Below are positions 43,834 to 58,449 of a DNA stretch of 64,000 bases, piece after piece. The position numbers and the translations under genes are program-made. How positions within the stretch are numbered: the first letter of the stretch is position 1; the number at the start of each line of letters is the position of its first letter. Source of the DNA: Alphaproteobacteria bacterium (lineage in GTDB: Bacteria > Pseudomonadota > Alphaproteobacteria > GCA-2731375); NCBI GenBank assembly GCA_965232515.1, contig CBDDPY010000002.1:1312001-1376000 (forward strand), read 5' to 3'. The notes beneath the pieces were generated by a model. It had not been told where the DNA came from. It saw only the letters and a list, made by a program, of their open reading frames with translations, and did not search any database.

Positions 43834-43923
43834 TGGCGGATGGGGTGGGATTCGAACCCACGAGACGCGCTAACGTCTGCCGGTTTTCAAGACCGGTGCC
43901 TTAAACCGCTCGGCCACCCATCC
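43834..43923 (-). tRNA. tRNA-Ser(TGA), 90 nt, encoded CCA
   Basis: GGATGGG...CCGGT-CT-TGA-AA-ACCGG anticodon arm, long variable arm, GGTTCGAATCC T-arm, CCCATCC-G-CCA end. Confidence 0.96.
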
Positions 43924-43925
43924 GC
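43883..43925. repeat. att core, left copy (within the intact tRNA)
   Basis: GTTTTCAAGACCGGTGCCTTAAACCGCTCGGCCACCCATCCGC. Confidence 0.95.
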
Positions 43926-44017: not shown

Positions 44018-45169
44018 TCAGCGTTCTACCATTGGTCTCAATATCGCGTCTATCCGGTTGGCCGCTTCTTCCTGCATTCCCGGCAGCACATGCGAATAGG
44101 TGTCGAGCGTGATCGAGACCGACGCATGGCCGGCGCGCTCACTCGCCACCTTCGGGTGCACGCCTTCAAGCAGCAGGTGCGAGATGTGCGTATGCCGGAG
44201 ATCGTGAAACCGGACGGTCGGGACATCGATGCCGGCGATGCGGCGGGCAAACTCGCGGGTGAGGGAGCGCGGCTGGACTGGCGCGCCGTCATAGCGGCAG
44301 ATAACCAACCCCTCGTCGTCGCGCCCCATGCCTTGGGCAAGCCGGAGCTCGGCCTGCTCGCGCCGATGGCGCCGCAGGGCATCGACCGCGACCGCAGGCA
44401 ATGAGATCGTCCGGCGCGAGCGTGCCGTCTTCGGCGGCTGGAACTGCACGCCCTTGGCTGTCTGCTCCAAGGTCTGGGTTACCGAGATGGACGCGCCGTC
44501 GAGATCGACATCGCGCCAGCGCAGACCAAGTATCTCGCCGCGGCGCATACCTGTGGTGACGGCCAGCAGGACCGGCATGTAAAGCTTGGTGCCGCCTATC
44601 GCGTCGAGCAGGACGCCAGTTTCCTTCGGGGTCAGGATCCGCATTTCCTTCCGCACCGGCCGCGGCGGCTCGACATCCTTGGCCGGGTTCCTGGCGATCA
44701 TCTGCCAGCGCACGGCCTGCTTTAGCGCCTGGCTGAGTATGCGGTGGTGGTGCTTCACCGACTGGGCGGAAAGACCTCCCTTGCCATCACGGCGGCCCGA
44801 TTCGAGCGCCTTTGACCATGCGGTGCTGATATGGACCGGCTGCAGCTTGCTGAGAACGTGCGTGCCCAGCGCCGGCACCAGATGATGGTGCACGATGTCG
44901 GCGTAGCGCTCGAACGTCTTCGGTCGAACGCTCGGCTTCACGGTGTCAAGCCACTGCTGCAGGAACTCGGCAACCGTGGTGCGGCTCGGCTCGACATACT
45001 CATTCGCATCCAGCGCGGCCAGCAGGCGGTTGAGTTCCCGCTGAGCATCGCGCTTGCCGCCGCGGACAGTGTGCCATTTGGTGCGGCGCTTCCCGGTCTC
45101 AGGGTCGCGCCCGATATCAATCTTTATCGCCCATGATTCCTTACCGCGCTTGCGGATATGACCTTTCAT
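44018..45169 (-). CDS. int: Tyrosine integrase
   Basis: Arm-binding N-terminus MKGHIRKRG..W; TGMRRGE, KT, FHDLRHT, GH, TYSH catalytic set; adjacent to att. Confidence 0.96.
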   Translation of the reverse strand: MKGHIRKRGKESWAIKIDIGRDPETGKRRTKWHTVRGGKRDAQRELNRLLAALDANEYVEPSRTTVAEFLQQWLDTVKPSVRPKTFERYADIVHHHLVPALGTHVLSKLQPVHISTAWSKALESGRRDGKGGLSAQSVKHHHRILSQALKQAVRWQMIARNPAKDVEPPRPVRKEMRILTPKETGVLLDAIGGTKLYMPVLLAVTTGMRRGEILGLRWRDVDLDGASISVTQTLEQTAKGVQFQPPKTARSRRTISLPAVAVDALRRHRREQAELRLAQGMGRDDEGLVICRYDGAPVQPRSLTREFARRIAGIDVPTVRFHDLRHTHISHLLLEGVHPKVASERAGHASVSITLDTYSHVLPGMQEEAANRIDAILRPMVER

Positions 45170-45717
45170 TTCAGCCTCCCGATCAGATCGCCCAGCCATT
45201 CCCGGATGCTGGGGAACATCTTCAACTGTTTTGAGTATTGAACGCCCTTCTCCGGAAGCGGCGTCTCATAGGTCATTTTCAACTGATCGATGATCCCGAG
45301 AGCGGTGGCCTCCGCCAATTGCTCGGGCTTAGGTGCCCAGCTTAGATGGGCCGGCGCCTTGGTCTTGCCCGCGGGTCGGAAGGCCAGCAACAGCTTTGCA
45401 ATCGCCTGGGCAGTGACCTCGGTGGTGTAAGCGTCGCTCGCCCAGTGCCGCCGCGTGATCATCTCGACCGAGTCAAAGACCTCGTTGAACAGCCGCGCAA
45501 ACGCATAGCGCTCGAGGCTATCGAACCGCTCCCGGATTTGCTTTTCATCGTCGAATGACCCGCGCAGCCGCGCCTCGACCTCCTGGCTAAGTGACATGTT
45601 GCTCGCCGCCCGGGCGTCCTCCAACGCCTGCCGCAAGTCGGCTGTAATGCGCGTGGTGAGCACGGCCCGCTTGTCCTCATAAGGCCCGCTTGGTTTGCGT
45701 CCGATCTTCCTTGGCAT
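45166..45717 (-). CDS. Arc/TraY-like ribbon-helix-helix regulator
   Basis: LTTRITADLRQALEDARAASNMSLSQEVEARL has an RHH pattern; ATGA-coupled to int, divergent from xis. Confidence 0.7.
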   Translation of the reverse strand: MPRKIGRKPSGPYEDKRAVLTTRITADLRQALEDARAASNMSLSQEVEARLRGSFDDEKQIRERFDSLERYAFARLFNEVFDSVEMITRRHWASDAYTTEVTAQAIAKLLLAFRPAGKTKAPAHLSWAPKPEQLAEATALGIIDQLKMTYETPLPEKGVQYSKQLKMFPSIREWLGDLIGRLK

Positions 45718-45898: not shown

Positions 45899-46093
45899 AT
45901 GCTGGAAAACCCGAAGACCATCAGCGTCCCCGAGGCCGGCTGGCGCTATTTCGGTCTCAGCAAGAATGCGTCCTATGAGGCCGCCAGGCGCGGCGATCTT
46001 CCCGTCATCCGCATCGGTCGCATCCTGCGCGTCCCGGTGGCCGCGATGGACCGAATGCTTGAGCAGGCCGGCCAAAACGAACGCGCTGCCTGA
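45899..46093 (+). CDS. Excisionase-like HTH protein
   Basis: TISVPEA...GLSKN..YEAARRGDLP.IRIGR..RVP; AAGGA RBS. Confidence 0.85.
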   Translation: MLENPKTISVPEAGWRYFGLSKNASYEAARRGDLPVIRIGRILRVPVAAMDRMLEQAGQNERAA

Positions 46094-46310: not shown

Positions 46311-46866
46311 ACTCGACTTCGACCCCCGAGAGACCTTCTACGCCTGCGGGCGCGATGTCCGACAGAGCCACATTGATCGGATCTGCCGGCACGTCACACC
46401 GCGCGCATTGCTCGGCGGCGGCGGCTTCGGTGTTGCCCGCATCCAGTTCGACGGTGACAGGTTCGATTTCGACGCCGCCGGCTTCGAAGCGTTCATTCTG
46501 GCCGCAAGAGAGTCACGGTGGACCGATCAGCTCGGAACCATAACCCCCATTATCGATCTCGTTGCCTGGCTGCCCGACCGCCCGCAGGTGTTCGGCGTGC
46601 TGGAGGGCCGCGCCTGGGCACTCGGGGAGCCGGCTCTATCGCCGAACCGAATGACCGCAGTCCCGGTCGTGCGAACACCGCTCGCCTGGCTGCAGCACGG
46701 CGGCGACGCGCTGCTGATCCTCGATCGCAAGCGGGCTTGGCTAGAACTGATGCACGGGCCGGCCCTGATCGCCGAAGACGTGCAGCATGGCCGAGAGCTG
46801 CGAGAGATCGTCAACCCGCCGAAATGGACGGGCGAAATCATGTTGCGGGAGAGGGCGGCAGCATGA
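46303..46866 (+). CDS. Hypothetical replication-module protein
   Basis: 187 aa with IIDLVAW and RTPLAWL motifs; ATGA-coupled to the helicase. Confidence 0.7.
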   Translation: MIELDFDPRETFYACGRDVRQSHIDRICRHVTPRALLGGGGFGVARIQFDGDRFDFDAAGFEAFILAARESRWTDQLGTITPIIDLVAWLPDRPQVFGVLEGRAWALGEPALSPNRMTAVPVVRTPLAWLQHGGDALLILDRKRAWLELMHGPALIAEDVQHGRELREIVNPPKWTGEIMLRERAAA

Positions 46867-48005
46867 GCGACGACGGGTTGATCCGACTGGAGGACGCCGA
46901 ACACCGCGCCCGCGGCGGCGATCCCACGCCGATCATCGACGAACTCGACCCTGTAAGGCTGCACGGCAAGCCGATCCCGCCGCGCCGCTGGTTGGTGCCC
47001 GGCCTGATCCCGTGGAAATCCGTCACGTTGCTCGGCGGCGATGGTGGGTTGGGAAAGTCGCTGCTAGCAATGCAGCTCCAGGCCGCGGCCGCGATCGGGC
47101 AAGACTGGATCGGGTTCGAAACCCAGCCGGTCAAGTCATACGGCATCTACTGCGAGGACGACGCCGACGAGCTGCACCGCCGGCTTGCCGACATTGCACG
47201 GCATCACGGCGTCGAGCTCGGCGACCTGGCCGACATGCTGATGGCGCCGAGGGTCGGACACAACAGTGTTTTGGCGTCGACCGGCTACGACCGCATCTTC
47301 CGCGAGCTGCCGCTATTCCAGGCTGTCAAAGCGAAGTGCCGCGAGCATGGCGCCCAATTACTCATCATCGACACCGTGGCCGACACGTTCGGCGGAAACG
47401 AGAACTTCCGCGGCGAGGTGCGCACCTTCATCAACCTGCTGCGGCAGATCGCAATCGAGATCGACGGCGCCGTTGTCTTAACCGCACATCCGTCGAAAGA
47501 CGGCCTGTCGACCGGCAGCGGTATTTCGGGGTCGACCGCCTGGAACAACAGCGTTCGGTCTCGCGTCTACCTGACCCGGCCCAACACCGACGACGGCGAG
47601 GAGGACCGATCGGACGAACGGGTGCTGAAGACGATGAAAGCCAATTACGGCGGCCTGCATGACGATATCCGGCTCGTCTGGCGGGATGGCGTTTTCGTCC
47701 GCATCGAGGAGCCGAGCGGCACCATTGGTGCCATCGAGCGACGGTCAGCGGAAGGTGCGTTTCTGGAGGGTCTGGACGCGCTGCAGCGCCAGGGCCGAGC
47801 GGTTAGCGAGTCCCGCAATGCCGGCAACTTCGCGCCGAAGGTAATCGCCGGCATGAAGGTCGGGAAGCGGCACGGCCGGGGCAAGTTGGCCAAGGCCATG
47901 GAGCGGCTTTTCGACGAAGGAAAGATCAAGGTCGAGACGTACGGACGCACCGGCGATCGGCACAAGCGCATCGTCATCGTCGGCGAGGAGGGGCACGAAA
48001 AATGA
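46863..48005 (+). CDS. AAA_25 / RepA-type SF4 helicase
   Basis: RRWLVPGLIP, Walker A GDGGLGKS, Walker B LLIIDT, GGNEN, AHPSK, SGSTAW, KANY; start ATG 46863. Confidence 0.92.
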   Translation: MSDDGLIRLEDAEHRARGGDPTPIIDELDPVRLHGKPIPPRRWLVPGLIPWKSVTLLGGDGGLGKSLLAMQLQAAAAIGQDWIGFETQPVKSYGIYCEDDADELHRRLADIARHHGVELGDLADMLMAPRVGHNSVLASTGYDRIFRELPLFQAVKAKCREHGAQLLIIDTVADTFGGNENFRGEVRTFINLLRQIAIEIDGAVVLTAHPSKDGLSTGSGISGSTAWNNSVRSRVYLTRPNTDDGEEDRSDERVLKTMKANYGGLHDDIRLVWRDGVFVRIEEPSGTIGAIERRSAEGAFLEGLDALQRQGRAVSESRNAGNFAPKVIAGMKVGKRHGRGKLAKAMERLFDEGKIKVETYGRTGDRHKRIVIVGEEGHEK

Positions 48006-48588: not shown

Positions 48589-48631
48589 GACGGCGAAACC
48601 GGCGTCTGTCTGCACAGTGGAGACCGCGCAA

Positions 48632-48868
48632 GTGAGCGAAAAGACAAAGGAAACCGGGAAACGCCCCCCTCGTGTCGGCCGTCTTGACACCGTTGGCGGC
48701 GTCGTCGCGGAGCTGGGCAAGATCTATCGAGCGGCCCGCCGCGGCGATATCGACACCCAGGATGTGACCCGGCTCGCCTATGTGCTGTCGCAAATCCGCG
48801 CGGCCATCGAAAGCAGCGAAATCGAGCGCCGGCTTGACGAGCTTGAACGCAAGGCAGGAACGCTATGA
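48632..48868 (+). CDS. Small helical protein, possible small-terminase/packaging-type factor
   Basis: G.I....A..L pattern and terminal EIERRLDELE coiled coil; function inferred only. Confidence 0.55.
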   Translation: MSEKTKETGKRPPRVGRLDTVGGVVAELGKIYRAARRGDIDTQDVTRLAYVLSQIRAAIESSEIERRLDELERKAGTL

Positions 48869-49364: not shown

Positions 49365-50013
49365 ACCTGTAAACGAGGCCGAACCGTCGGCAGCCGAGAA
49401 GGTGGCCGCGACGCTCGCCGGCCTCGAAACGCAACTCGCCGACGCGACGGCCGAGCGTTCCGAGCTGATCGACCGACAGGGCCGATTGGCGATGCGCATG
49501 CACAGCGGCGACAGCGCAGCCGGCGAAGCCTATCGCGGCGTGGTGGGCGAGCGGCGCCGGCTTGATGAGACGGTCGAAAGCCTGACGCTCGCTGTGCAGG
49601 CGGCCCGCGCCGAGCATGAGCAGGCTGTCAGCGACGATATGGCGGCCGCCGAGGCAAACCGGGCCGAGCGTATCGACGCCCTACTCGACCTGCGCAATGC
49701 GGCGCTTGCCGACGCCGAGCGAGCCTTGCGCGAGGCGCTCGACCGGCTGGACCGAGCCGGCGAGCTGGCGGCCGAGATCGTCGAGGTTCGCGGCGCTGTC
49801 AAGAACCTGCCCCGTTTCAGCAACACGCTGCACCCCGAAAACACACGCGACCGGCTGTCGTGTTCGGCCAACGCGTTCGGGCTCGGGCGGTGGCTCAATC
49901 TCGATCAGGAGCGGATGCCGTTCATCAGGGACGACACGCCATCGTCGCTGGTCGACGTCGAGGCACCCGTACAGGACCGATATCGACTGACCGAGAAGGA
50001 GCACGCGGCATGA
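49357..50013 (+). CDS. Coiled-coil protein
   Basis: Ala/Glu/Arg-rich heptads over about 150 aa; AAGGGG RBS. Confidence 0.75.
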   Translation: MNEPVNEAEPSAAEKVAATLAGLETQLADATAERSELIDRQGRLAMRMHSGDSAAGEAYRGVVGERRRLDETVESLTLAVQAARAEHEQAVSDDMAAAEANRAERIDALLDLRNAALADAERALREALDRLDRAGELAAEIVEVRGAVKNLPRFSNTLHPENTRDRLSCSANAFGLGRWLNLDQERMPFIRDDTPSSLVDVEAPVQDRYRLTEKEHAA

Positions 50014-50363
50014 ACGCGCAAGAGGCACAACGGAAGATCCGCGCCATCCTGGCCGACAAGGATCACGCCTATCACGATTCTCGTAGTCCACAGCATCAAG
50101 ACGCTGTGGACGTGATGCAGGGGCTTTACGAGATCGTCTATCCGGTCAGCGAGCCCGAGCCCGGCGGGCAGCGGTTCGCCGAGCTGGCGCAATCCCAGAT
50201 CCGGAAGAAGGAAAGCGATCCCGACTTCATGGCGGCGTACCGCGAACCCGGCCACGCCGATCACGCGCAGGCGGTCGAGACCATGAACCGGCTTTACCGC
50301 GAGGCGCACCCGGAGCCCTCGATCGAGGAAGGGTTCGCAGACGCAGGAGGGCCCGAGCAATGA
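50010..50363 (+). CDS. Protein with two tandem copies of a podovirus scaffold C-terminal-like motif
   Basis: Internal repeat AQ..IR....D...AY......H..AV..M..LY....P; AAGGAG RBS and ATGA overlap at 50010. Confidence 0.7.
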   Translation: MNAQEAQRKIRAILADKDHAYHDSRSPQHQDAVDVMQGLYEIVYPVSEPEPGGQRFAELAQSQIRKKESDPDFMAAYREPGHADHAQAVETMNRLYREAHPEPSIEEGFADAGGPEQ

Positions 50364-50803
50364 CCATGAGCGGCGTTGCAACCGGCGGCCTGGGCAGCAT
50401 CGGAGACCAGCAGCACAAGCCCGATGACTTCCAGGCACTCTTGGAGACGTACGGCACCGCCTCGGCGGCCGGCGACTACAAGCACTTCAGCGAAGCGGTT
50501 GGGGACAGGCTGGTTGAAGCCGGCGTGCTGGACGAAAATAGCCCTTGGCTGACGACGTTCGTCTTGCAGGCGCAGGCGGCGGCAAAGCTCCGGGAAGTCG
50601 TCGACGGACGCGGCGAAGTGGTGCGGGATTTCGGCGGGCTCGCCATGTTCCTAAGTGATCGCGCGATGATCGGTGGCGACGAAGGGCGTCGGCTACTGCT
50701 CGAGTACGCAGACTTCCGCCAGGCGTTCGCAAAGGCATGCCGGGACGAGCTGGAAGCCCGAAGCGGACAACCAGGCTACGAAGCACCGGACGACGCCGCA
50801 TGA
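50360..50803 (+). CDS. Hypothetical protein
   Basis: ATGA-coupled on both sides; AGGAGG RBS. Confidence 0.7.
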   Translation: MTMSGVATGGLGSIGDQQHKPDDFQALLETYGTASAAGDYKHFSEAVGDRLVEAGVLDENSPWLTTFVLQAQAAAKLREVVDGRGEVVRDFGGLAMFLSDRAMIGGDEGRRLLLEYADFRQAFAKACRDELEARSGQPGYEAPDDAA

Positions 50804-51312
50804 CCACTGCGCCCGCTACAGTCGATTATCGCGCGCGCTCGCGGCGGCCCGTCATCCGGGAAGCGACGGCCGCCGACGTGCCCGAGCTGGTGCGCCTGGG
50901 CGCCGAGATGCACGCGGAGTCGCCGGCCTATTCCTGGCTGCCGTTCGACGACGTGCTGGCGCTCGCGAACGGGCATCGCTGGGTGATGAGCGACGAACAC
51001 TTGGTGCTGACGGCCGACGATGACGGCGACCTGTTCGGCGTGCTGGTCGGGCACCTCGGACGGTTCTTCTTCTCGCGCCGGCTGATCGCCTCCGACATCG
51101 TGCTCTATGTCCGCGCCGAACGCCGCGGCGGCCTGGCGGCGAGCCGGATGGTCAAGCGCTTCCGGGACTGGGCGACAGAGCGCGGCGCCGCCGAGATGTG
51201 TATCGGGGTAAGCGCCGGCATCGATAGCGAGCGTATCGGCCGCTGGCTGGAAGCGATGGGAATGGACATCGGCGCGGTCACGTACAAGAGGCGGCTCGAT
51301 GTCACTCCATGA
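50800..51312 (+). CDS. Phage-type GNAT acetyltransferase
   Basis: IREATAADVP, LYVRAERRGG..A..M, start ATG 50800. Confidence 0.82.
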   Translation: MTTAPATVDYRARSRRPVIREATAADVPELVRLGAEMHAESPAYSWLPFDDVLALANGHRWVMSDEHLVLTADDDGDLFGVLVGHLGRFFFSRRLIASDIVLYVRAERRGGLAASRMVKRFRDWATERGAAEMCIGVSAGIDSERIGRWLEAMGMDIGAVTYKRRLDVTP

Positions 51313-52018
51313 ACTCGGACCACCGTTCGGCGATGATGGCGCGTGCGATCGGGATTGCGGTGGCGCGGTCCATGCCCGGCCGCAGTCGGTCGTCGTAGAG
51401 CGTGGCGAGGAGCAGCCTGTCAGCCGGGGTGAGCTCGAAAACCGTATCGGCTTCGCAGATGACGGACGGACGGTAGTGGCAGGCGTCGGCCGGCAGGCCC
51501 ATCGCCTGATAGATCTCCTCAAGGATGCAGTCGCGCTGGTCTCGTTCCGAGATGTCGGCGCCGATCAGCACAAGCGCGCCGATCACCTCGCCGTTGCCGC
51601 GTTGCGTGGCGATGTGCACCAGGCAAAGCGATGCGTTGATTTCATCGCCGGCACTTACCCATGTTGGCTGCACCTGACGAAATTGCCGGCGCGGCATAAC
51701 GGCGATTTGGAAATTGACCTGATCGTCGCGGACGGCGCTCCGGTTCCAGCCGAGACCGGTTGCTACGGCGATGTCATCCATGCTGGCTTTGAGGAAGGCG
51801 TCATGCAGGGCAAGGCTCGTTCGAGCGGCCTCACTGTCGACCCATCCAACGACTGGTTCGTTGGGCCAGCGCCGCATGGTGTCTTGGCCAACGCCGAAAT
51901 CATTACCGAAAGCGGCCACTTCGAATTGCCGGGCCACGTTCTCGGGTGTCGGCGTAATCGGCTCCGGGCCAGTCGACACGCAACCGGCGAGCAAGAGAGC
52001 GGCGAGCAGCACACGCAT
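51302..52018 (-). CDS. DUF2927-like lipoprotein
   Basis: Lipobox LLAGC; CILEEIYQAMGLPAD..S; D..LL..LYD.RLRPGM. Confidence 0.75.
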   Translation of the reverse strand: MRVLLAALLLAGCVSTGPEPITPTPENVARQFEVAAFGNDFGVGQDTMRRWPNEPVVGWVDSEAARTSLALHDAFLKASMDDIAVATGLGWNRSAVRDDQVNFQIAVMPRRQFRQVQPTWVSAGDEINASLCLVHIATQRGNGEVIGALVLIGADISERDQRDCILEEIYQAMGLPADACHYRPSVICEADTVFELTPADRLLLATLYDDRLRPGMDRATAIPIARAIIAERWSEFME

Positions 52019-52056
52019 GCCGCAACCATATAGGCGCGAACAAAGGAGACGCAATC

Positions 52057-52890
52057 ATGTGTGGTACAGGCGGTGAAGGCGACAACGGCGGCGATGCCGA
52101 AGTTGACATTGAAGCGCAGGCATTCGGCGTTGGCCCGGTCGGGCAGACGGGGCCGGCACCGGGACCAGGGAATGAGCCGGGCGGGCCGTCGGACAATCCG
52201 GGTCCGGGTCAGTTTGGCGGCATCGGCGCGCCGGGCACGTCCGGGAATTTCGGCGGTGTCGGCGGTCCTGCCGATCTTGAAGCCGATCAAGCCGGGCGGA
52301 ACCCTGGCGCGCTGTCGCCGGGTAAGGGACCAGGGCCGAGCAGCAACACAGTGGGCAAGGTCATCAAAAATGTCTTGCCGTTCGGTGTGCCGCCGGCCGC
52401 TCTCGATCCGTTGGCCGAGAAGGGCGGCCGCGCAATAACAGGCCTTATCGAGGGCATAACCGGAGCGAAGGGCCAAGCCCCCGGCCAAGGCCCCAGCACA
52501 GGCAGCGAAGGCGGTCCCGCGAGCGATTTCGGCGAGAGCGGTAACTTCGGCGGTGTTGGCTTTGGTGGCGGAAACACTGGCGGCGACGGTGCGGTTGATA
52601 ATGGCGCTTCCCGACCGCTGGCAACGTCCGTGCAGACAGCCGAGCGTCAAATCGCGAACCAGCTCGGGCGGCCGGCGCCGCCGGCACGCGCCCCTGCGCT
52701 TGACCTGCCGAGCTCGAACATTGACGAGATCCGTGCCGAGCTGGAAGCAGAGAAAGACGCCCGCCGACGCCGGCGGCGCGCGACACGCGATTCAACGATC
52801 GTGACCGGTCCGCTCGGCGTGCCTGGGCAACCGGAGCTGCTGTTCACTCGCGCGATCCCCGGCGCGTCGCGTCGCCTTTTGGGGCAGTGA
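52057..52890 (+). CDS. Gly/Pro-rich protein with MC start and podovirus virion-protein-like C-terminus
   Basis: AAGGAG RBS; ends RRRRRATRDSTIVTGPLGV...RRLLGQ. Confidence 0.7.
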   Translation: MCGTGGEGDNGGDAEVDIEAQAFGVGPVGQTGPAPGPGNEPGGPSDNPGPGQFGGIGAPGTSGNFGGVGGPADLEADQAGRNPGALSPGKGPGPSSNTVGKVIKNVLPFGVPPAALDPLAEKGGRAITGLIEGITGAKGQAPGQGPSTGSEGGPASDFGESGNFGGVGFGGGNTGGDGAVDNGASRPLATSVQTAERQIANQLGRPAPPARAPALDLPSSNIDEIRAELEAEKDARRRRRRATRDSTIVTGPLGVPGQPELLFTRAIPGASRRLLGQ

Positions 52891-52892
52891 CG

Positions 52893-53198
52893 ATGGCCGA
52901 CGACGACAAGGTGGTCGAACTCAGCGACTCGCGCGGCGATCAGATCCAGGCCGATCAGCAATTCCTGCTCGACGAGCTACGCAAGTCTGCAGCAGCGGCG
53001 GCGGACATCCCCGATCTGGCCGGCTTCGCCCTGATCGCCTGGGACGGCGAGGCGAAGCCCTACACGCTGGTGAACCTCGGCGCGACCGTTAATCCGACCG
53101 TGCCGCGGCAGCTAATCCCGGCCTATGTGCAGATCGTCATGCAGCAGTGGCACGCGCTGTGCTGCGAGCAGGAGCGGTTAGATGGCAGTGAACTGTAA
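52893..53198 (+). CDS. Hypothetical protein
   Basis: Immediately follows the previous stop; LAGFALIAWD motif; alternative GTG start 52887. Confidence 0.65.
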   Translation: MADDDKVVELSDSRGDQIQADQQFLLDELRKSAAAAADIPDLAGFALIAWDGEAKPYTLVNLGATVNPTVPRQLIPAYVQIVMQQWHALCCEQERLDGSEL

Positions 53199-54336: not shown

Positions 54337-54546
54337 TTAGAGGCGCATGAACTGAACGAACGCCTGAATGGCGAACCCCGATACTACCAGCAGGAATCCA
54401 TAGAATTGGCGGTCGAACCGCTGTCCGCCACCGCTCCAGAACGGCCGGCGGTCCGGCGCCCTCAGTAGATGGTAGCCGAGAACTGCAAAGCCCACGCCGT
54501 CGCAGAGCAGCCCGACGAGATTGATGAACCCCAAACTCACAATCAT
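54337..54546 (-). CDS. Small two-TM membrane protein
   Basis: Two hydrophobic segments; AAGGGG RBS. Confidence 0.55.
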   Translation of the reverse strand: MIVSLGFINLVGLLCDGVGFAVLGYHLLRAPDRRPFWSGGGQRFDRQFYGFLLVVSGFAIQAFVQFMRL

Positions 54547-55240: not shown

Positions 55241-56203
55241 TTACACGCGGTTCTGCGCTGTCGCCAGCTTGGCCGCCGCACCGCGGCGAACCATCAGGTT
55301 CTCGGTGTAGCGCGACACCATCAGCGCCGTTTTCCAGCCGCCGGCCTGCATGATGCCCGGCAGCTCGATGCCAGCCGCGACCATGTCCTGAGCGCAGCCG
55401 ACGCGCGTTGAATGCCCGGAGATGTCCGAGACCAGCGAATCGGCAACGCCGGCAGTGGCGGCCATGCGCTTGTAGATCCGGGCCACGTCGCCGCCCCGGA
55501 GACGGCTGCAGACGGCGCCGCCGAGCCGGACGGACCGGAACAACGCGCCATGCGCGATGTCGGCCGCCCGCAGCCACGCCGAGAGGTGCGCCACAGTGTC
55601 AGCCGCCAGGTACCGCATGGAGCCTTCGCCGCTCTGGTCGGTTTTGCTGCGCCGAATGAGCGCCGTTCCGTCGCCGGCCTCGGTCACATCGATGTCGGCC
55701 ACGTCCAGCGCCACGAGCTCGCTGCGCCGCGCCAGCGTGTCATAGGCGACGGACAGCAGCGCACGGTTGCGAAGGCCGATCGGCGTGTCGGGACAGGCCG
55801 CGAGCATGCGGTCGACCAGCGGGCGTGTCAGCCCGGCCGCCTGCCGCTGCCGCCGGCCTTTCTCGCGGTGCATGCGCTTCATGGCGAGCTTGACGGACAG
55901 GTCATCGGTTGGCGTCGGCACGCCTGCCGCACGGTGGAACATGGCGATGCTCGACACGTACCGCTGCACCGTCGCCGGCGCCCGGGCCTCGGACATCGCG
56001 TCGATGAACGCCACCACGGCCGCAGGGGTCGCGGGGAGGGGCGTGAACCCCTCCCGTACGCACCAGGCCGTCCAGATGGCCGTATCGCTCTTGAGCGCCC
56101 GCTCCGTCGCTTCGGCATAGGCGCCGCGGGCCTGCTCGGCGTGCCGCTCGAGATTGGCCAGCACATCGGCCGGCAGCGGCGTGACGGTGGTGAGCGCGTT
56201 CAT
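55241..56203 (-). CDS. Cre-like tyrosine recombinase (resolvase type)
   Basis: SAM-like N-domain; RNRALL..YDTLARRSEL, RRSKTDQ.G.G, SGHSTRVG.AQD, GGWK, RY; no arm-binding domain; GGAGG RBS before 56203. Confidence 0.92.
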   Translation of the reverse strand: MNALTTVTPLPADVLANLERHAEQARGAYAEATERALKSDTAIWTAWCVREGFTPLPATPAAVVAFIDAMSEARAPATVQRYVSSIAMFHRAAGVPTPTDDLSVKLAMKRMHREKGRRQRQAAGLTRPLVDRMLAACPDTPIGLRNRALLSVAYDTLARRSELVALDVADIDVTEAGDGTALIRRSKTDQSGEGSMRYLAADTVAHLSAWLRAADIAHGALFRSVRLGGAVCSRLRGGDVARIYKRMAATAGVADSLVSDISGHSTRVGCAQDMVAAGIELPGIMQAGGWKTALMVSRYTENLMVRRGAAAKLATAQNRV

Positions 56204-56517
56204 GACGAGCCTCCAACACTCAGGCCGACACTCCACAAAAGGGGCAACGCCCTTGTCTCGGGTCCAGGCTGCCGGCCCTCGTCAACAGCGATGCGCCAGT
56301 ACCGCGCGTCGAAGTCGAACGGCGGCCGCAGCGGATCGGCGTTGAGCCGCCACGCCAACAATGACGCCTCCTCCTCAAGCCAAGCCCAGTATTTGCGCAA
56401 GGCCTCCTCGGACGGGCGTTCGATGGCGGCGACGATTTGCGGCTTGATGATGGCCGCCGTCGATGCGATGGCGCCCATACCTTTGACGACAGTGCGACGG
56501 GAAACGTTCGTTTTCAT
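56200..56517 (-). CDS. Small phage-type protein with twin-arginine-like N-terminus
   Basis: MKTNVSRRTVVKG; GGAGG RBS; ATGA-coupled to the recombinase. Confidence 0.65.
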   Translation of the reverse strand: MKTNVSRRTVVKGMGAIASTAAIIKPQIVAAIERPSEEALRKYWAWLEEEASLLAWRLNADPLRPPFDFDARYWRIAVDEGRQPGPETRALPLLWSVGLSVGGSS

Positions 56518-56528
56518 GGCCGCCTCCC

Positions 56529-57167
56529 TCACACCCAAGCCTTGCCGCAGGCCAGATACTCGACCGTCTGATTGCTGGCGATTTGCGCCCGGCACCCTTC
56601 CGCCGACTGTTGGGTAAACTCGTTGTCGGCAAGATCGTTTTCCCGGTCGTGGTTGTCTTCGGCCGGGTCGTCGTCTTCCAGCGGGTCGTCATCCTCGTTG
56701 TCGTGGTCAGGCTCCATGTCGGCGGCTTCGCTGCCGAACTCGGCCAGCCAGGCCAGCAACGGCGGCGTGACGGGAACGAGCAGGTAATCCAGATCGCCGT
56801 CGACGGGGATAAGGTCAGCGTCGGCGACCAGCGCGGCAACGACCAGCGTCGCCTTGTGCGCCATCTGCCGCCGCAAGATCGCCGCTTCACCGGTCATAGC
56901 GATGGCGATGTTGGTGGCGGCTGTCCGCCGGCCAGTCGGGGCGCACCGGTGGTACTTCAGCAGTCGCGCCAGCTTCAGCAGCACATGCCGTGTGAAGTCG
57001 AGCCCGATGTCGTCGTGCACGTCGAGCAGATCGGCCGGCACGTCCGGCAGAAGGTGCGGCAGGTGTTCTGCCCGGTCATAGGACCTGGCCGATTCGCGGA
57101 CGAAGTGCTTGCGCGACGCAATGCCGATCGCGCGGGCTTGCGCGGCAGCCATTTCGATGGGTGTCAT
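56529..57167 (-). CDS. Hypothetical protein with acidic repeat tail; first gene after the C4 leader
   Basis: Tail EPDHDNEDDDPLEDDDPAEDNHDRENDLAD; RBS overlaps a C4 target box. Confidence 0.65.
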   Translation of the reverse strand: MTPIEMAAAQARAIGIASRKHFVRESARSYDRAEHLPHLLPDVPADLLDVHDDIGLDFTRHVLLKLARLLKYHRCAPTGRRTAATNIAIAMTGEAAILRRQMAHKATLVVAALVADADLIPVDGDLDYLLVPVTPPLLAWLAEFGSEAADMEPDHDNEDDDPLEDDDPAEDNHDRENDLADNEFTQQSAEGCRAQIASNQTVEYLACGKAWV

Positions 57168-57219
57168 GATGATTTCCTACGTTTGGCTTTCTAGGCCATG
57201 CCAGCGGTCAGCGCTGGCG

Positions 57220-57293
57220 CCGGGAGCTAGAAACCGGACGTAGGACCGGCGGGCTTATTCCCCCGAAGGGTCTTGTATTCACCGCACTCCCGA
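57220..57293 (-). ncRNA. C4-like antisense RNA (P1 C4 / P4 CI type)
   Basis: Closing stem CGGGAG/CTCCCG, internal GAATACAAGACCC-TTCG-GGGGAATAAG, antisense boxes CCTACGT and GTTTCTAG complementary to flanking targets. Confidence 0.8.
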
Positions 57294-57370
57294 CAGAAGC
57301 CGGGCATAAATATACCGCCAAGACCGGTGGCGGGAACCGCCTACGTTAGGTGTTTCTAGCACCGTCGATA

Positions 57371-57399
57371 ATGATAGATATGGGGCACCTAGTTTGCAA
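57371..57399 (-). promoter_or_regulatory. Sigma70-type promoter of the C4 operon
   Basis: Minus strand TTGCAA-17 bp-TATCAT just upstream of the first target boxes. Confidence 0.7.
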
Positions 57400-58406: not shown

Positions 58407-58449
58407 GTTTTCAAGACCGGTGCCTTAAACCGCTCGGCCACCCATCCGC
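58407..58449. repeat. att core, right copy (displaced 5' half of tRNA-Ser)
   Basis: Identical to 43883-43925; covers tRNA position 1 through the anticodon loop. Confidence 0.95.

Follow-up and report, generated by a model that had tools for sequence, protein, structure and literature searches.

A window of 64,000 nt from an alphaproteobacterial genome (GenBank assembly GCA_965232515.1, contig CBDDPY010000002.1, positions 1,312,001 to 1,376,000, forward strand) was found to contain an integrated island of 14,524 bp (repeat spacing) at a tRNA-Ser gene, bounded by 43-bp direct repeats that are 100% identical. Within the island lies a cassette of three genes, encoding a GNAT acyltransferase, a DUF2927 lipoprotein on the opposite strand and a glycine-rich protein with a Met-Cys start (hereafter the MC protein). 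As the original prediction had described from the DNA letters, all three open reading frames (ORFs) are present and open. They are tightly coupled, the 3′ ends of the DUF2927 and GNAT genes overlapping by 11 nt, and their GC content at third codon positions (GC3, 0.69-0.86) is like that of the island core genes.

The MC protein (277 aa, 22% Gly, 11% Pro, AAGGAG upstream of the start) begins MCG, continues through an acidic Gly/Pro low-complexity middle and ends in a basic C-terminal motif consisting, as predicted, of an Arg run, STIVTGPLG and LLGQ. Few ORFs of the host have an MC start, namely 4 of 1,860 of at least 150 aa with a Shine-Dalgarno sequence and ATG (contig C2). Residues 205-257 match phrog_831 (E 5.2e-6; homologue in the related genome G001, E 1e-6), and the C-terminal motif of that family (basic run, ST(I/L)xTG..G and LLG) is present. 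No match at E 0.1 was obtained between the MC protein and the T7 families PF17570, PF11653, phrog_1391 and phrog_1320, which the T7 proteins do match, and tblastn with its last 89 residues returned nothing in cultured phages.

An alignment of three C-termini was used for a motif search, which gave 147 viral stretches, and the best 80 were kept. A portal homologue starts at most 1.1 kb downstream in 76 of the 80 loci (as the next ORF in 14), and the other four loci end too soon. The 80 loci are not independent, because most come from near-identical low-GC phages, and the proteins they encode are mostly 71-80 aa long. The proposal that this C-terminus marks podovirus pre-portal proteins was therefore borne out: the closest full-length homologues of the MC protein directly precede PF12236 portal genes, and the opposite outcome, motif matches lying away from portals, did not occur. 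The gene-before-portal position that characterizes phrog_831 is occupied by the homologues (76/80 loci, G001 and G022) and not by the MC gene on the portal-less island.

Besides the island's own genome, two of 61 relatives carry the GNAT. In G001, of the same genus, a GNAT 51% identical to that of the island overlaps the gene for an MC protein of 260 aa, and a PF12236 portal gene comes next; this protein and that of the island (BLASTP E 8e-6) have in common an MCG..DIEAQAFG start and the C-terminal motif. In G022, of the same family, the order is small terminase (TerS), large terminase (TerL), DUF2927 (44%, opposite strand), GNAT, a 221-aa MC protein, portal, scaffold and capsid. Both ends of the island, G001 and G022 MC proteins are common to all three, while the middle differs. 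At class level, the GNAT was detected at E 1e-24 in 5 of 400 genomes (G415, G137, G379, G112 and G383). The G415 copy lies in a podovirus prophage with the order scaffold, MC gene, GNAT and two opposite-strand DUF2927 genes, so that the MC gene and GNAT are reversed and the pair is still adjacent; the G137 copy lies in a phage tail region, and the other three lie in type I secretion system (T1SS) loci. The adjacency of GNAT and MC gene, which the original prediction had marked for checking in related elements, was found in the G001, G022 and G415 prophages. Two metagenome contigs contain similar arrangements: L195 has TerL, GNAT, an MC gene and two DUF2927 genes, and L196 has TerL, GNAT, a 71-aa MC phrog_831 gene, one ORF and the portal.

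Other acyltransferases occupy the same slot. A G005 prophage has TerL, a HlyC-type (RTX toxin-activating) acyltransferase (L234:10329-10865, PF02794 E 1e-16) in the usual place of the GNAT, an opposite-strand DUF2927 gene, a Gly-rich pre-portal gene and the portal, the same order as on the island. In G325 and G147, an ORF resembling T7 gene product 13 (gp13) lies before MC pre-portal genes. Separately, at L249:6641-7330 the frame of a gp13-like ORF continues without a break into an MC pre-portal protein, whose inner ATG has GAGGAG before it; this is either a fusion or an internal start.

The original prediction had treated the DUF2927 gene as an insertion splitting the cassette. This part does not stand: DUF2927 genes share this slot or flank it in five prophages or phage contigs, one of which has precisely the island order; in G294, an opposite-strand copy lies before the pre-portal gene. 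As a regular passenger of the pre-portal slot, the gene need not have been inserted on the island. In the G415 prophage region (G415:C1:37000-71000; L201, L170), six DUF2927 matches are scattered on the opposite strand, two of them fused to long membrane domains, and scaffold-tail motifs occur in three places together with a split TerL. On the strength of the homologues and gene orders above, the island cassette almost certainly originates from a podovirus pre-portal region.

The GNAT (170 aa) was assigned to phrog_1249, 'acetyltransferase' (E 2.3e-27), with a Pfam match (PF00583) of only E 0.004. Its predicted structure has a GNAT fold (predicted local distance difference test score, pLDDT, 95); among solved structures it comes nearest to aminoglycoside, polyamine and RimI-type acetyltransferases, with 13-20% identity and no specific match. 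Although 49% diverged from its nearest prophage relative, it keeps every nearly invariant family residue. The GNAT of record L200 is 53% identical to it. In a quick 65-row tree with Shimodaira-Hasegawa-like approximate likelihood ratio test (SH-aLRT) support and no bootstrap, the island GNAT joins the G001 GNAT and P0003 (SH-aLRT 93), then the G415 prophage GNAT (89); T1SS-linked copies form a separate clade (96), and host GNATs are distant. Clustering with toxin or housekeeping GNATs, named beforehand as a result that would count against the prediction, did not occur, and assignment as a housekeeping or toxin-antitoxin GNAT was rejected by the tree and by bit scores (97 bits vs at most 70 for 59 other host matches). 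Members of the T1SS clade (L171, L172, L173; P0004, P0006, P0054) lie beside HlyB/HlyD-like genes, one also with HlyC, and tandem two-domain forms exist.

Profiles of the gp13 family (PF11090, phrog_308) did not match the GNAT, and HHalign of a 3-row gp13-like alignment to the GNAT alignment gave a probability of 16% (E 0.0016). tblastn with the GNAT returned 205 cultured phage records; SP6/K1E-like phages dominate among the matches listed, with YeP4-6 and CRP-810 on top. Gene order was inspected in four of these records: the gene that follows the GNAT starts MC in YeP5, where it encodes a phrog_418 internal virion protein, and in CRP-810; in K1E and Paso the GNAT is followed by small pre-portal genes with an MG or VG start. 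Viral-locus searches with the single GNAT and with a 3-row alignment found no locus, and word-index searches with the GNAT and with the scaffold-tail protein of the island (described below) matched only themselves.

To count Met-Cys starts, 65 GNAT loci were grouped in 34 clusters (<60% identity), and one cluster at a contig edge was left out. The gene after the GNAT starts MC in 15 of 33 clusters vs 10 of 314 controls (ORFs after other long ORFs), and in two further clusters a leader stands before CxCxGG. The Fisher test (p 3e-11) overstates this enrichment, because the clusters are related to one another and because G001, G022 and the four chosen phage records count among the loci. The enrichment is seen both in the slot preceding the portal and in that preceding gp14-type genes. 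The pattern supports, but does not show, N-terminal acylation. Other acyltransferase types filling the same slot (HlyC-type in G005, gp13-like in G325 and G147) count in its favour; judged from gene order and N-termini, the chances that the GNAT acylates an MC N-terminus may be called evenly balanced. A complex prediction of the GNAT and coenzyme A (CoA) with residues 2-36 of the MC protein scored 0.03. In marine phages, the gene after the GNAT encodes a conserved leader of 18-21 residues ending in CxC and followed by Gly and acidic residues (L046-L049, L051, L053-L056, L058, L064, L177-L184, L191, L192, L194); in sequence, these products look like an MC protein behind a putative cleavable pre-sequence.

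The DUF2927 protein (238 aa from the ATG at 52018; PF11150 E 3.3e-31) has a lipobox, LAGC, at residues 10-13. Its model (pLDDT 92, 30-row alignment) matches matrix metalloproteinases (MMPs) and serralysins (MMP20, Z 11.4, root mean square deviation 2.8 over 143 residues), and the top 12 rows are metzincin-like. With the register read by eye, EEIYQAMGLPA at residues 167-177 takes the place of the HExxHxxGxxH zinc motif, so that E167-E168-x-x-Q171-x-x-G174 stands where HExxHxxG would; E167, Q171 and G174 are invariant in 30/30 rows. As modelled, the fold is metzincin-like with the canonical zinc ligands lost. An active zinc protease was rejected, and a binding protein is more likely than a protease. 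Two G415 copies have an HExxH-type motif or a variant of it. DUF2927 is present in 13 of 33 family genomes and also occurs away from phage genes; 2 of 14 fetched regions showed phage packaging or structural genes by the queries used. tblastn with the protein returned nothing in cultured phages. A tblastn match of the G022 portal inside DUF2927 (E 0.01, 31 aa) was rejected as chance. Superinfection exclusion by this lipoprotein, which the original prediction had suggested, would be an unlikely function.

The remaining island genes are listed with the cassette in Table 1. The attachment (att) repeat equals the 5′ half of the tRNA-Ser gene as far as the anticodon loop, so that in the intact tRNA gene both the 5′ half and the stretch upstream of it are supplied by the island; integrases usually restore the 3′ half of a tRNA. 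In the replication module, the AAA_25 helicase was matched and the primase domain itself was not identified in Pfam or PHROG; the helicase had no match at E 1e-40 among 32 order-level genomes. Both motif copies of the 117-aa scaffold-tail protein align to the C-terminus of the G022 scaffold and to five further prophage or phage motifs.

Table 1. Features of the tRNA-Ser island (window coordinates)
Feature	Position	Strand	Assignment
att repeat copy 1	43883..43925		43 bp, 5′ half of tRNA-Ser(TGA) 43834-43923, minus strand
Tyrosine integrase, 393 aa, open	44018..45199	-	PF00589 E 1.6e-19; phrog_1 E 1e-81
Probable ribbon-helix-helix (Arc-like) regulator	45166..45717	-	weak match, phrog_228 E 0.0035
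Excisionase-like helix-turn-helix (HTH) protein	45899..46093	+	PF12728 E 6e-6 (just under cut-off); phrog_66 E 0.012
AAA_25 helicase, primase/helicase replication module	46863..48005	+	PF13481 E 3e-32; phrog_906 E 1e-33
83-aa protein	48617..48868	+	38% homologue in small integrase-bearing island of G079
117-aa protein, two copies of podovirus scaffolding-protein C-terminal motif	50010..50363	+	phrog_3742 positions 244-285/287, E 2.6e-4
GNAT acyltransferase, phrog_1249	50800..51312	+	profile, tree, model fold
DUF2927 lipoprotein	51302..52018	-	PF11150
MC protein, long-form podovirus pre-portal protein	52057..52890	+	phrog_831, homologues, motif search
101-aa ORF in the place where prophages have the portal gene	52893..53198	+	starts 2 nt past MC stop
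att repeat copy 2	58407..58449		identical direct repeat

The 83-aa protein had no meaningful match in Pfam, PHROG or NCBIfam; it is possibly a small-terminase-like packaging factor, a label assigned without a library match. Its homologue lies in an island of about 6 kb in G079 (L246:11500-17400) that contains an integrase and an AlpA-like gene and lacks the GNAT and MC genes. The 101-aa ORF following the MC gene had no family match in the same three libraries, and a likeness to the portal N-terminus was too short to use. After the three cassette genes, the island also encodes cargo, a second recombinase and an FRG protein. Window positions 55241-57399 comprise the second tyrosine recombinase (331 aa) and upstream ORFs, and two homologues of 56529-57167 (58-61%) occur at other places in the genome.

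None of the 26 scanned island ORFs matched portal, capsid, large terminase or tail families in Pfam or PHROG, and structural genes taken from related prophages gave no tblastn match on the island. A single holin match, at 54337-54546, stayed below threshold (E 0.073). A complete prophage at the tRNA-Ser site was rejected. In one sample sequenced in two runs, the island is a single piece of 14,547 bp at the depth of its flanks (67 vs 60-65 and 105 vs 98-113). A promoter scan gave chance-level counts (1 vs 1.0). Elsewhere in the genome, a 38,198-bp contig (G000:C1) with genes that by eye resemble type IV secretion genes is a plasmid and not a helper phage. A second island of about 36 kb (G000:C2:4232731-4268431; L043, L044, L077) ends at a tRNA-Gly gene and contains an integrase, an AAA-type helicase, a broken DUF2927 gene, two small-terminase genes (phrog_51, phrog_4044) and three large ORFs (470, 471 and 857 aa) that are tail-fibre or ejection-like by eye and have no family match; no capsid or portal was seen in it.

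Because it combines exact att repeats, an open integrase, a helicase and a scaffold-tail protein within 14.5 kb, and no structural gene was found, the island is probably a working satellite. That it uses the cassette is somewhat favoured. The reading that joins both, in which a satellite of temperate podoviruses captured the pre-portal module of a helper and now uses it, is held tentatively, the chances being only just short of balanced. A helper podovirus would induce the island, which would replicate and be packaged in helper-built heads, the doubled scaffold tail helping. The start Met of the MC protein, as is usual before a small residue, would be removed, and the GNAT would acylate Cys2 with acyl-CoA as donor; such a maturation step would not require the enzyme to be in the particle. 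The MC protein would then be loaded at the portal-tail channel, its basic C-terminal motif holding the DNA end and nozzle as in T7 gp7.3, and would exit at ejection. With an ejection part of its own, the island could get its particles past exclusion systems directed at ejection proteins, of which SieA of phage P22 is an example. The integrated island would express the DUF2927 lipoprotein from a separate transcript, and the lipoprotein would bind rather than cut an envelope partner, possibly blocking related phages.

Several observations weigh against captured use of the module or against the acylation step. A helper of the G022/G001 type (portal, TerL, capsid) was not found by tblastn in the genome, which is 96% complete; tblastn is the search that counts here, since PF12236 matched neither in this genome nor in the controls. 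No circle joint or excision was listed in the assembled contigs of one sample, contigs being a form of data that drops rare forms. No second portal-less island with a GNAT and MC gene was found, the other phage-type loci with enough flank being phages or prophages, and the island gene order matches the prophage slot almost exactly, as after recent passive capture. Residues 1-40 of the MC protein have a net charge of -7, and the basic N-terminus of gp7.3-type wedges is absent. In G334 and G294, the pre-portal proteins start MS and MA, and no neighbouring acyltransferase was seen. The motif proteins start MG in 76 of the 80 viral loci and MC in one, a phrog_1249-type GNAT was found in 0/80, and a gp13-like gene lies directly upstream of the motif gene in 0 of the 68 loci with room; a gp13-like ORF occurs somewhere in 16 of the loci. 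The motif marks a pre-portal protein, and its pairing with a GNAT is not universal; the predicted placing of an acetyltransferase beside MC-start proteins stood in the related prophages. Since three of the five class-level GNAT matches lie in T1SS loci, the GNAT family also has other uses.

The strongest rival is that the module is a piece of podovirus prophage, acquired by recombination or remaining from a large deletion, that sits idle on the island, with DUF2927 at most kept as cargo. Since neither a second island with the cassette nor excision was seen, this reading keeps some weight, although it appears rather less likely than use by a satellite. The G005 prophage, with its acyltransferase, opposite-strand DUF2927 and Gly-rich pre-portal gene in island order, fits such hitch-hiking, as do the free shuffling of scaffold tails and DUF2927 genes in prophages such as that of G415 and the broken DUF2927 copy in the second island of the same genome. 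An idle fragment is less readily reconciled with open, tightly coupled frames of core-like GC3, with a GNAT that has kept the nearly invariant residues across its divergence, with a cut that falls cleanly at the MC stop before a new ORF 2 nt later, or with a replication module that differs from the prophage gene sets tested.

It is improbable that the genes are joined by position only and that the GNAT has a substrate of another kind, be it a small molecule such as a polyamine, a protein of the host or an ejection protein of gp14 type. The non-specific structural matches, the MG-start genes that follow the same GNAT in SP6/K1E-like phages and the T1SS clade would suit another substrate, whereas Met-Cys enrichment in two different genomic slots and the persistence of the pair in reversed order in G415 argue for the MC protein. 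Marginally weaker still is an interference device, in which the MC protein would compete with the helper pre-portal protein or the GNAT would mis-modify helper ejection proteins to lower particle infectivity: the island keeps short decoy-like pieces of helper head genes (the doubled scaffold tail), competition by satellites for scaffold-binding sites is on record (PMC6893505, in the part available) and only the two ends of the MC protein are conserved, yet that protein is full length (277 vs 260 and 221 aa in the prophages) rather than a truncated decoy, and poisoning would hit the particles of the island as well.

In its widest form, the proposal is that podoviruses acylate the N-terminal Cys (or Gly) of ejected core proteins by a dedicated enzyme, and that a satellite captured enzyme and substrate as its own channel plug in helper-built particles, paired with a pseudo-protease lipoprotein guarding the cell against related phages; taken whole, this is doubtful. 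In the literature searched, with most subscription journals outside coverage, no account of N-terminal acylation of podovirus ejection proteins or of a Met-Cys rule, no paper on DUF2927/PF11150 and no satellite with a pre-portal protein were found; the supplements of the EcCIMP1 paper (PMC11773190) and of the Ar-KM preprint may bear on novelty. The available text of PMC8954989 does not mention 'acetyl' or 'acyl'. Acetyltransferase-fold genes beside podovirus internal virion genes have been known since 2016 without a substrate. The Met-Cys rule would name substrate and residue, and it is testable in T7 with existing mutants. If true, dedicated acylation of ejected core proteins would explain the role of T7 gp13-type genes. 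A satellite that keeps the enzyme-substrate pair while lacking portal and capsid would mark the pair as a functional unit and reveal that satellites can exploit the DNA-ejection step, beyond head size and packaging. DUF2927 gains a predicted metzincin-like fold that has lost its zinc ligands, and a prophage context that recurs.

T7 gp6.7 and gp14 also start MC. T7 gp13, or internal virion protein A (IVP-A), and genes in the same position in many podoviruses are described as acetyltransferases that directly precede an internal virion gene, are needed for morphogenesis and are absent from the virion (PMC4819975); the section on IVP-A names no substrate and does not mention an MC start. The island GNAT is like gp13 in being such a gene and unlike it in family (phrog_1249 vs phrog_308/PF11090) and in preceding a pre-portal protein, not IVP-B. 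By analogy, the MC protein is a putative counterpart of T7 gp6.7 and gp7.3 and of the Ar-KM 'ejection wedge' gp34, with which it has in common the pre-portal gene type, the low-complexity middle and the basic C-terminal cluster. Structures describe gp6.7 as a core protein and the C-terminal lysines of gp7.3 as binding the DNA end at the nozzle (PMC11784390, in the part available). Ejection wedges range from 45 to 450 aa, a range that includes the MC protein, and a wedge-type ORF is reported always to precede Autographivirales portal genes (bioRxiv 10.64898/2026.05.18.726046, available text). The MC protein differs from these proteins in belonging to phrog_831, in its acidic N-terminus and in having no portal after it.

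The DUF2824 family has a gp13-like GNAT fold, and phage Kapi1 is a podovirus. EcCIMP1 of E. coli MP1, a tested phage-inducible chromosomal island (PICI) carried in particles of its helper Kapi1, has DNA-transfer and DUF2824 genes and adds superinfection immunity (PMC11773190). It is without capsid and terminase genes. Like it, the present island is integrated at a tRNA gene, has helper-like genes and gave no capsid or large terminase match; EcCIMP1 differs in being 20 kb, AlpA-regulated and enterobacterial, and the available text describes its captured genes as DNA-transfer proteins, mentioning no pre-portal protein, scaffold tail or DUF2927. P22 SieA, a prophage-expressed envelope protein that blocks podovirus DNA entry via ejection proteins (PMC10461980, in the part available), offers a functional model for the DUF2927 lipoprotein, with no homology implied. 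PICIs and Staphylococcus aureus pathogenicity islands (SaPIs) with CpmB are of similar size and combine an integrase, a regulator, a primase-helicase and a helper-exploitation cluster with a scaffold C-terminus mimic (PMC10085698; PMC6893505), and the scaffold-tail protein resembles CpmB in principle (PMC6893505). PICIs as described in the available parts of these papers typically have no other structural genes, and their helpers are not of this podovirus type. Of the SatelliteFinder core set for PICIs, the island has the integrase with att repeats and a primase-replicase module, and no portal, tail or holin was found above threshold. It falls short of the complete set. Where an AlpA, MerR or Stl regulator would be expected, the library matches are limited to HTH_17 and a weak Arc-like one, and the 83-aa protein had no TerS match in Pfam, PHROG or NCBIfam. 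Among the known systems compared, the island most likely works like a PICI with a captured ejection accessory.

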